Shown here in pieces: positions 47,534 through 49,450 of a stretch of 64,000 nt of DNA. The translations under genes and the position numbers were made by a program. Origin of the DNA: Promethearchaeia archaeon (GTDB taxonomy: Archaea; Asgardarchaeota; Lokiarchaeia; Sigyniarchaeales; SOKP01); the NCBI GenBank assembly GCA_029856045.1, contig JAHQWG010000033.1, forward strand, positions 32,001 to 96,000, read 5' to 3'. Positions within the stretch are counted from its first letter, which is position 1. Every line of letters starts with the position of its first letter. The notes beneath the pieces are model-generated. The model ran no database searches and was not told the origin of the DNA. It was given only the letters and a program-made list of their open reading frames with translations.

Positions 47534-48076
47534 ATGAAGTGTCCTCATTGTGATGCGGAAATAGGCGAGGATTTGGATGAATGTCCTTTCTGTTATGCTG
47601 ATTTAACTGCACCTCCAGTTGCACAAGATATCTCTCAGGTAGGTGTATCAACGTTAGATTCATATTCAATTGGTCATGTTGCAATGGGTGTAATGGCATG
47701 GTTGATTATTTCTTTAGGATATTCTATTTATCAATATTATGGTCTTCCCCCACTTTTTGAATTATGGGTTGTTTTTCTTTTAACATTATTATTTGCCGTT
47801 GTTTGGGAATTATTTGAAAATGTTATTCTATTTAAAGCTGGATTAAAATTCGAAAGTCGCAGGGATTCTATACTAAATAGTATTTGGGATATTCTTTTTG
47901 TAGTTTTGGGAGCAGTAATATTCTGGATTTTTTGGTATTTTTATGTAGAAGTAGCTAAAAATGCTGGACGTTGGTATTATTTAATTGGCTTTATAACGTT
48001 CACACTCTTAGTAATAATCTTTATATTTTCACTCAAATTCATAAAAAAAACTTCTGAAAAGAAGTGGATATCATAA
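47534..48076 (+). CDS. Zinc-ribbon-containing membrane protein (possible membrane metallohydrolase fold)
   Basis: N-terminal CPHC...CPFC, then a TM bundle with D.YSIGH, WELFEN and DSILNSIWD. Confidence 0.7.
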   Translation: MKCPHCDAEIGEDLDECPFCYADLTAPPVAQDISQVGVSTLDSYSIGHVAMGVMAWLIISLGYSIYQYYGLPPLFELWVVFLLTLLFAVVWELFENVILFKAGLKFESRRDSILNSIWDILFVVLGAVIFWIFWYFYVEVAKNAGRWYYLIGFITFTLLVIIFIFSLKFIKKTSEKKWIS

Positions 48077-48520
48077 CATAAATTTAATTAATTCTTTTTT
48101 ATTTTAATTTCCAAATTAATGTTATATGAAAAATTAGATATCTATAACCGAAAAAACTAAAAGATTTGCTTTTTTCTCTAGAAATAATTTAAATTTTCTT
48201 CATAAATCATATAAAATTTATTTTCCTCTAAATTATGAAAAATTATAAGGATTAATAATGCGTTAATAAACCAACCCATTTTCTCGAAAAATCGAAAATT
48301 ATGAATCAAAATAAAAACAAATTTAAAATTCAAAAAAACTTCGATTTTTGTCTGCAGTAAACTTAAAAAAAAATTTTTATATTTCTTAAGAATTATGGAT
48401 TATTTTCTTTTTTTCTTTAATTTATTTGAATTTATATAAAAATACTCTATTTTAATTCAATTAATTTTGAAATATAATTACTATTTATTCTCTAATCATT
48501 TCAAACATTCATATTTTTTG

Positions 48521-48536
48521 GAGAAAAGTTTATATA
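48521..48536 (+). promoter_or_regulatory. Archaeal BRE + TATA box with no downstream CDS
   Basis: gagaaaag followed by TTTATATA (48529-36). A TG initiator lies at 48558/59, placing the TATA at -30..-23. Confidence 0.55.
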
Positions 48537-48558
48537 TAGATTGGGATATAGATATAAT

Positions 48559-48700
48559 GTAAGAAATTTTATAAAAAAAAATTGGAATGCATTGGAAATA
48601 ATGGATTTTTTGCCATAATTTATTCCTCCGCTAATATTGAATGGTAATTGATCATTAATTTATAATTCCTTTTTCCTCTTGCATTCCAATCCTTTCTTAC
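48559..48700 (+). ncRNA. Candidate structured small RNA (~142 nt), unknown family
   Basis: 5' gtaagaaa pairs with 3' tttcttac; a perfect 11-bp stem attggaatgca/tgcattccaat; two inner hairpins; starts at the predicted TSS. Confidence 0.45.
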
Positions 48701-48934
48701 TTTCCAGATTTATATTATCGAAATTTTTAATATTATTTAAATATAAAAATTAAAATCCTATTTCAATTTCTTTTAAAATTCTATTTAATTTTTAAAGAGT
48801 TAATTTGGAAATGTAAGACAATTTTAATAATTTCATTGAAAATTTTTAAAGTACAGATAATTTTGCATTATTATAACTTACATTTATTCAAATGATTAAA
48901 AAAGGAGTCGATAAATATTCGAAAAAGGTTAAAA

Positions 48935-49450
48935 TTGGGTTTAATTCAACTATATTTTGGTAGAGGAAAAGGAAAAACTACTGCTGCGATAGGTCTCGGC
49001 TTACGCGCTTCAGGACATGGATTCAAAGTAAATATGATTCAATTTATGAAAGGAAACACAAAGTACGGAGAATTAAATGCCGTCAAAGGAATTGAAAATT
49101 TTGAAATACACCAGTTTGGAAGAATGGATCTAATAATGGAACCTGAGAAAATTGATATCGAAGAAGGCAAAAAAGCCCTAAAATACGCAGAAGAAATTAT
49201 TATGAGCGATAACTATGATCTCGTGATACTTGATGAAATTGGAGTTGCTCTTGAAATGCATATAATCAAGATTGATGATGTGATGAATTTAATTGAAAAA
49301 AAACCTGAAAAAGTTGAATTAATTTTAACTGGTGGGCAAAAAATCCATCCCAAAATAAAAGAAATAGCAGACCTAATAACTGAAATGAAGATGGTAAAAC
49401 ATTATTTTTCAACAGATGGAATACAAGCTCGCCTTGGAATTGAATTCTAA
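48935..49450 (+). CDS. cobO: Cob(I)yrinic acid a,c-diamide adenosyltransferase (CobO/BtuR)
   Basis: GLIQLYFGRGKGKTTAAIG, IQFMKG, LVILDEI, ELILTG, KHYF...ARLGIEF. Confidence 0.93.
   Translation: MGLIQLYFGRGKGKTTAAIGLGLRASGHGFKVNMIQFMKGNTKYGELNAVKGIENFEIHQFGRMDLIMEPEKIDIEEGKKALKYAEEIIMSDNYDLVILDEIGVALEMHIIKIDDVMNLIEKKPEKVELILTGGQKIHPKIKEIADLITEMKMVKHYFSTDGIQARLGIEF

Follow-up and report, generated by a model that had tools for sequence, protein, structure and literature searches.

A candidate family of Asgard small RNAs complementary to the translation starts of histone genes

Masking of the ribosome-binding site (RBS) has been proposed for the intergenic RNAs sRNA41, sRNA154 (with glnA2) and sRNA162 of Methanosarcina mazei (PMC5867862; for sRNA162, PMC3510493). 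The locus reported here resembles them as a trans-encoded archaeal sRNA gene, with its own promoter and a proposed translational repression acting over the RBS of its targets. It differs from them in that it has no sequence or Rfam relationship to them, belongs to another phylum, and has histone genes as putative targets, for which no experimental data are available here. The complementarity is also far longer: its 25-41 nt begin upstream of the Shine-Dalgarno sequence (SD), reach the coding region, and resemble a copy of the target. The novelty lies in the family, the lineage and the target class, as the kind of regulator is already known from the RBS-masking sRNAs proposed in M. mazei.

In bacteria, sRNAs of the RsaE/RoxS type carry C- or CU-rich anti-SD sequences that act as short seeds on many mRNAs, and antisense RNAs of the CopA/CopT type, encoded in cis opposite their target, initiate pairing through a loop. 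The RNA predicted here shares with these types an anti-SD placed in a hairpin loop, and pairing is expected to start from single-stranded loops and then to spread. Unlike them, it is trans-encoded and yet has a complementarity of nearly cis-like length. Plant miRNA genes originate by inverted duplication of their target genes, and the present hairpin, in which an antisense copy of the target 5′ end is folded on a degenerate sense copy, offers an analogy, but no more than that: the domain of life is another one, there is no Dicer-type processing, and the likeness is one of origin, not of mechanism. A full-text literature search revealed no publication dealing with Asgard sRNAs or with archaeal histones under sRNA control. 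To our knowledge, regulatory sRNAs have yet to be described in Asgard archaea, and little is known about the control of histone levels in archaea.

The element lies in the window, i.e. the whole 64,000-nt stretch of Promethearchaeia DNA that was analysed (contig JAHQWG010000033.1, positions 32,001 to 96,000). It sits inside a gene-free region of 858 bp (48077-48934), flanked by a DUF2585-like gene (47534-48076) and by the corrinoid adenosyltransferase gene cobO (48935-49450). A preliminary description, made from the letters alone, had placed there an orphan promoter followed by a structured RNA of about 142 nt with CU-rich segments. All its coordinates proved correct: the length of the gap, the promoter (48521-36), the position of G48559 at 30 nt past the first T of the TATA box, the 8-bp stem gtaagaaa (48559-66)/tttcttac (48693-700), the 11-bp stem attggaatgca (48581-91)/tgcattccaat (48680-90), and the CU-rich stretches tcctcc (48624-29) and ttcctttttcctct (48666-79). 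The 3′ end of the predicted RNA remains uncertain, and would fall at about 48693-48705, in a T-rich stretch. The features are as follows.

48250 to 48410, no strand assigned: upstream blocks conserved across genera, from sequence comparison.
48521 to 48536, plus strand: BRE/TATA promoter, gagaaaag followed by TTTATATA, homologous to the family-wide block CGAAAnnTTTATTA and aligned with other genera.
48559 to 48700, plus strand: predicted sRNA of ~142 nt, with the 5′ end deduced from the promoter distance and the 3′ end uncertain.
48559 to 48566, plus strand: 5′ arm of stem P1, GUAAGAAA, with its partner at 48693-48700.
48581 to 48591, plus strand: 5′ arm of stem P2, AUUGGAAUGCA; family consensus GUAGUGGAAUG.
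48606 to 48636, plus strand: anti-initiation-region module, whose best duplex partners in its own genome are five histone genes.
48610 to 48647, plus strand: inner hairpin of the minimum free energy (MFE) structure, pairing 48610-16 with 48641-47 and 48621-24 with 48633-36.
48613 to 48629, plus strand: CCAUAAUUUAUUCCUCC, invariant across genera, comprising an anti-AUG (48613-15, within CCAU), an anti-spacer and an anti-SD (48625-29).
48625 to 48632, plus strand: apical loop CCUCCGCU of the MFE inner hairpin; the equivalent in other genera is P3/P4 with the loop CUCCAC.
48646 to 48684, plus strand: genus-specific insert including the second CU-rich run (48666-79), not found in other genera.
48680 to 48690, plus strand: 3′ arm of P2, UGCAUUCCAAU; family consensus CAUUCCAUUAC.
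48693 to 48700, plus strand: 3′ arm of P1, UUUCUUAC, inside the T-rich zone of probable termination.
48568 to 48629, minus strand: GGAGG, 7-nt spacer, ATG and an ORF of 15 codons, the mirror image of the anti-initiation module; rejected as a gene.

The stability of the fold was confirmed with RNAfold, which gave -31.5 kcal/mol for 48559-48700, against -18.6 +/- 3.0 for dinucleotide shuffles (z -4.25, none of 200 shuffles equal). The minus strand of the same segment folds equally well (z -4.48), so that folding energy alone selects no strand, and merely reveals a nested inverted repeat. The shape that had been drawn could not be retained. In the MFE structure, the 8-bp and 11-bp stems close one long, irregular hairpin instead of a multibranch fold, for which there is no conservation; the motif ccat, supposed to pair with an upstream atgg, pairs in the MFE structure with the downstream atggt. 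The same applies to the hairpin aatggt/atcatt and its G-U pair, thought to indicate the plus strand, as this hairpin is not conserved, is consumed in the MFE structure, and is weakened in genome G001. In that genome, P2 carries the change A48586G, which gives a G.U pair on the plus strand. As for the second CU-rich segment, once taken for a further anti-SD, it is genus-specific and has no outstanding target in the window's genome. A scan for sigma-70 promoters and intrinsic terminators was uninformative, the organism being an archaeon.

No known class of RNA accounts for the element. Comparison of the window with Rfam 15 by Infernal returned no family match (best E=3.1, 17 bits for a gathering threshold of 37), and nothing relevant was found in Rfam for four typical loci with their flanks. 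As initially stated, the element contains no tRNA (the ARAGORN scan for tRNA and tmRNA found none) and no C/D boxes, neither RUGAUGA nor CUGA occurring within 48559-48700; a match to snoU31b was at chance level. An H/ACA sRNA was discarded, as the 3′ flank of most members is UUAC followed by a U-run, with ACA in some lineages only. A cobalamin riboswitch or cobO leader was discarded in view of the lack of any Rfam match and of an adjacency to cobO confined to genus g1, the window's genus. Finally, a MITE or other repeat was discarded, since the 3.34-Mb genome contains 48559-48700 in full length just once, and other genomes likewise have a single copy. Short matches to 48606-29 in the genome correspond to the starts of other genes (SD and ATG GCA AAA).

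Within the genus, the 142-nt element is 96-99% identical across three congeneric genomes that are only ~92% identical overall. It varies in just 5 columns, for flanking genes that are 87-92% identical. Covariation within the genus is uninformative, since the four sequences are near-identical (99%). The whole 858-bp gap is kept at 95-96%. Upstream of the sRNA promoter, ~300 nt are conserved across genera (about 1170-1446 in loci L054, L057 and L096). They include a palindrome, TTATTAAG-N2-CTTAATAA, with a homologue in the window at about 48252-72, and an A/T block ending in TTAAATTTATGAGC, found in the window at about 48362-410. RNAalifold detected no shared RNA structure in these 300 nt, and hence no second RNA there. 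Lacking shared structure, the blocks are probably regulatory DNA of the sRNA gene, which would explain why the entire gap is conserved within the genus.

Homologues were sought with covariance models. A first model, R1, built on the two outer stems, was run on 100 genomes of the same Promethearchaeota family and found matches of 98-122 nt in two other genera, with GGAAUG...CCAUAAUUUAUUCCUCC...CAUUCC in common; a synteny-guided search with R1 upstream of cobO in other genera gave chance matches only. A second model, R2, matched 104 of 135 genomes of the family, nearly always with one copy per genome, and in 11 of its 13 genera (11-12 for the covariance models together). A third one, R3, derived from a structure-blind MAFFT alignment (A7) of 30 short members, matched 103 of 131 family genomes, and none of the 19 genomes of three sister families of the same order. 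When 185,579 species genomes were scanned for the exact pattern, mainly Promethearchaeota MAGs were recovered, together with chance bacterial matches having other spacings. The window copy is the divergent member of the putative sRNA family.

Signals lying outside the search models are common to the homologues. A BRE/TATA block (consensus ...ATTGACGAAACATTTATTA...) is present 30 nt upstream, and in other genera the first bases of the RNA, AGAAAA, lie 30 nt past the first T of TATA, the same distance as from TTTATATA to G48559 in the window. Directly after P2, other genera have a T-run of 5-10 T. Promoter and T-run are both present in about 50 distinct loci; the sequence past the T-run is not conserved, and no conserved promoter is found on the other side. 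Of 49 distinct leaders, 44 also form a local 5′ hairpin with 6 bp or more, whose stems vary by lineage: A-run/U-run, AGAAAAU/AUUUUCU with a UUCG loop, GAUGAAAA/UUUUCAUC, GACGA/UCGUC, and CGAAAAA/UUUUUCG. This predicted hairpin covaries across the homologues. They further have in common the long hairpin GUAGUGGAAUG/CAUUCCAUUAC, with a G.U pair that can form on the plus strand alone.

Gene order was compared in 38 loci taken from L053-L148. cobO adjoins the sRNA gene only in genus g1, and is 10-60 kb away in the others. Flanking genes vary between genera, which makes the sRNA an independent unit. A trans-encoded sRNA is expected to have a promoter and a terminator of its own, untied to a neighbouring gene, and such is the case here. 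The initial proposal of an undescribed Asgard sRNA with its own promoter is therefore supported by the family-wide, single-copy occurrence of the gene, the conserved BRE/TATA and the T-run. Regarding neighbours, an ETF-alpha gene is convergent with the sRNA, ~140 nt downstream, in 22 of the 38 loci, and a DUF2585-like membrane gene is found ~600 nt upstream in 11 of the 38, inverted in the window.

In its usual form the RNA is ~100 nt long and reads, in order, 5′ hairpin, P2, UUUG, P3, internal loop, P4 with apical loop, and U-tail. The long hairpin consists of three helices, P2 (GUAGUGGAAUG/CAUUCCAUUAC), P3 (UUUUUAG/CUAAAAA) and P4 (UUUAUUC/GAAUAAA), with the internal loop (G/C)CCAUA between P3 and P4 and the apical loop CUCCAC on P4. 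The window's genus departs from this scheme: it has no local 5′ hairpin, the 5′ end of the RNA pairing instead with its 3′ end through the 8-bp stem, and it has an extra, sense-like stretch at 48592-48605. From P3 to the loop, the 5′ strand is nearly invariant, whereas the opposing strand varies by lineage and even shifts register. Such a strand, invariant while its intramolecular partners vary, must be kept for its sequence and not for folding alone.

Covariation gave mixed results. On a 70-sequence alignment, none of 500 shuffles and none of the slid controls scores as well as the structure; P2 reaches 92% pairing and has three pairs in which both sides have changed. Limited weight can be given to this result, because the sequences were aligned by fitting them to the model and the outer helix is rich in A and U; closure of the 5′ and 3′ ends can likewise be counted family-wide, but only on that alignment. 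With the structure-blind MAFFT alignment of 30 sequences, covariation was no higher than in shuffles. The main hairpin offers little covariation, since its 5′ strand and the two arms of P2 hardly vary. The fourth pair of P2 bears on the strand. It is G.U in 50 of 57 distinct sequences and A-U in the other seven; in the wider A6 alignment, U-A (window's genus) and U-G (one sequence) are found as well. On the minus strand, the prevailing G.U would be a C.A mismatch, which favours the plus strand. Over all helices, 94 cells are G.U, against 15 A.C.

Read on its complement, the invariant strand is an SD, a spacer and ATGG, and the genes first matched in the window's genome encode histone-fold proteins (PF00808). 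All histone paralogues were then listed in ten genomes of seven genera, for comparison, one by one, with the sRNA encoded in their own genome. Seven genomes have a histone gene start to which the reverse complement of their own sRNA can be aligned over 25-41 nt; the alignment begins upstream of the SD and extends into codons 4-8, and its score is reached by none of 300 shuffles. Target scoring with RNAduplex was done on the 4035 SD-led start regions of the window's genome only. With 48606-48636 as a query, the five histone paralogues take ranks 1-5 of 4035. A 47-nt core places first the lysine-tailed histone on C15 (-42.0 kcal/mol, z -6.3, the next being at -33.5), and all five histone genes are within the top 13 rows. 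Cores taken from three other genera again put the C15 histone first (-43 to -48, z about -7, the next near -35). As the histone paralogues are related, their joint top ranking does not amount to five independent events. BLAST agrees in other genomes: once self matches are set aside, the sRNA of G063 has its two best matches at histone gene starts, in antisense, and for that of G072 histone starts rank second, fourth and sixth, also in antisense, behind the start of an actin homologue.

A trans-encoded sRNA should also expose a conserved single-stranded seed against the SD or AUG of mRNAs encoded elsewhere. The invariant 17-19 nt, with CCUCC in the apical loop, agree with this, as do the histone ranks and the antisense alignments given above. 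The anti-AUG triplet varies in 7 of 57 distinct sequences, five of which (three with CGU, two with UAU) can still pair with AUG by wobble. Agreement between sRNA and histone genes is partial, the wobble position of codon 2 agreeing in about 5 of 10 genomes, and spacer indels of the sRNA having no counterpart in the histone genes. Moreover, the sRNA's own helices sequester much of the antisense strand. Some histone paralogues contain in-frame stops, TGA at G000:C36:302799-303014 and TAA at G139:C7:137239-137499 and G139:C6:146572-146778; these may be pseudogenes, assembly errors or split genes.

The proposal that the RNA masks SD sites is supported, and can be made sharper. The CCUCC in the conserved apical loop speaks for it; the complementarity is not to SDs in general, but to the whole initiation region of histone genes, SD, start codon and first codons included. 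Our preferred reading, which we consider slightly likelier to be right than wrong, is that of a trans-acting antisense sRNA that blocks histone translation, expression, pairing in vivo and the direction of the effect being inferred. The sRNA would be transcribed from its BRE/TATA promoter and end at the T-run. The whole 5′ strand of its long hairpin is complementary, in antisense, to histone mRNA, starting ~12 nt before the SD and reaching about codon 8. Pairing would be nucleated by the anti-SD (CUCC) of the apical loop and the anti-start codon (CCAUA) of the internal loop, and the duplex would spread across SD and AUG, thereby blocking 30S binding. The histone mRNA may also be exposed to decay, and the outcome would be less histone synthesis. 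Without expression data, the transcript itself, its ends and its strand remain inferences too, drawn from a conservation, a promoter, a terminator, a structure and a complementarity that are directly observed.

Should histone dosage indeed be set by such an sRNA, this would be the first RNA described as regulating chromatin proteins in archaea, as well as the first functional sRNA to be proposed in the Asgard group. The candidate is defined in sequence, comes with about 100 natural variants, and has a conserved and probably regulated promoter. Its predicted target set is specific, 4-6 histone paralogues and especially the lysine-tailed one, and it allows a connection between RNA regulation and chromatin to be tested among the prokaryotes closest to eukaryotes.

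Other explanations have to be weighed. The RNA may act against initiation regions in general, by titrating or repressing any mRNA with the strongest SD-spacer-AUG consensus, histones, actin and small winged-helix (wHTH) proteins among them. In genus g2, the start of an actin-homologue gene (MEELKFNRAIILDNGTG...) is a perfect 19-nt complement of the invariant strand (L072 and L073, around position 1500; G072:C64:151921 and G046:C46:9974). It is a better match than histone and, as seen above for G072, the top non-self one in that genome, so that targets other than histones are possible. The 17-mer complement GGAGGAATAAATTATGG is exactly this actin start in two g2 genomes, and is within 1-2 mismatches of the starts of 84-aa wHTH genes in g2 and g6. 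However, in the sole genome that was fully ranked, the histones come ahead of everything else, with ribosomal, actin and other abundant genes far behind, and pairing extends into histone codons 2-8, which a generic anti-SD RNA would not need. We thus regard a general role as unlikely, albeit worth keeping in mind. Somewhat less credit is due to the idea of a structured plus-strand RNA with another role, such as protein binding or an RNP scaffold, in which the likeness to histone genes would be a relic of origin. Conservation of both P2 arms in sequence, and not in pairing alone, fits a protein-binding site, and the incomplete co-variation with histone genes also points that way. Yet it is the antisense 5′ strand that is invariant, its intramolecular partners being lineage-specific, and a relic free of pairing should not keep 17-19 nt unchanged over 11 genera. 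An 84-aa winged-helix-like protein (…TPIQNNLIKTLQ.IGPSTRR.LV…) was also seen at loci L075, L076 and L083, around position 1500, in g6 and g2, its start region being one mismatch at most away from the 17-mer.

The minus strand could be the one that matters, as a decoy initiation region or mini-ORF (ATG-GSC-TAA), or as the 5′ fragment of a histone gene undergoing decay, and its perfect GGAGG, 7-nt spacer and ATG, with a fold as good as that of the plus strand, made this worth considering. A small protein or type I toxin encoded there was rejected because neither the SD-led micro-ORF nor its ATG is conserved: the ORF comprises just 2 codons in most genera, as opposed to 15 aa in the window and 21 aa in g2, and its ATG is missing from 7 of 57 distinct sequences. 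The mismatch that replaces the prevailing P2 pair, the conserved promoter and T-run on the plus strand with nothing conserved past the T-run, and the absence of a consistent downstream gene on the minus strand all contradict a minus-strand product, which we deem highly improbable. We have just as little faith in an element acting at the DNA level, be it a palindrome for a transcription factor, a MITE remnant, an origin-like repeat, or a B12-linked leader of cobO. The nested inverted repeats and the long AT-rich gap beside cobO recall such elements, but the sequence is single copy in the genome, cobO is remote from it in other genera, neither a cobalamin riboswitch nor any other Rfam family is matched, and the repeat arms differ in ways that are tolerated in RNA, by G.U pairing, and would be needless in a DNA palindrome.

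Returning to the antisense repression of histone genes, the hairpin reads as an antisense histone 5′ end set against a degenerate sense copy, which makes it likely that the sRNA gene arose by an inverted duplication. Its source would most likely have been a partial copy of the 5′ end of a histone gene, and it would be a clean example of an sRNA gene seemingly copied from its own target. The broader proposition, that histone dosage in one Asgard lineage is set post-transcriptionally by a dedicated, family-wide sRNA born in this way, we judge evenly balanced between true and false. In the genus-specific part of the window copy, the insert 48646-48684 looks like a degenerate second copy of the anti-initiation (anti-TIR) module. 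The 5′ leader 48563-48586, GAAAUUUUAUAAAAAAAAAUUGGA, is identical at 23 of 24 positions, in sense, to the 5′ UTR of a histone gene on C27 (C27:474168-474191), a likeness suggesting that a histone locus was the source of the genus-specific 5′ part as well.
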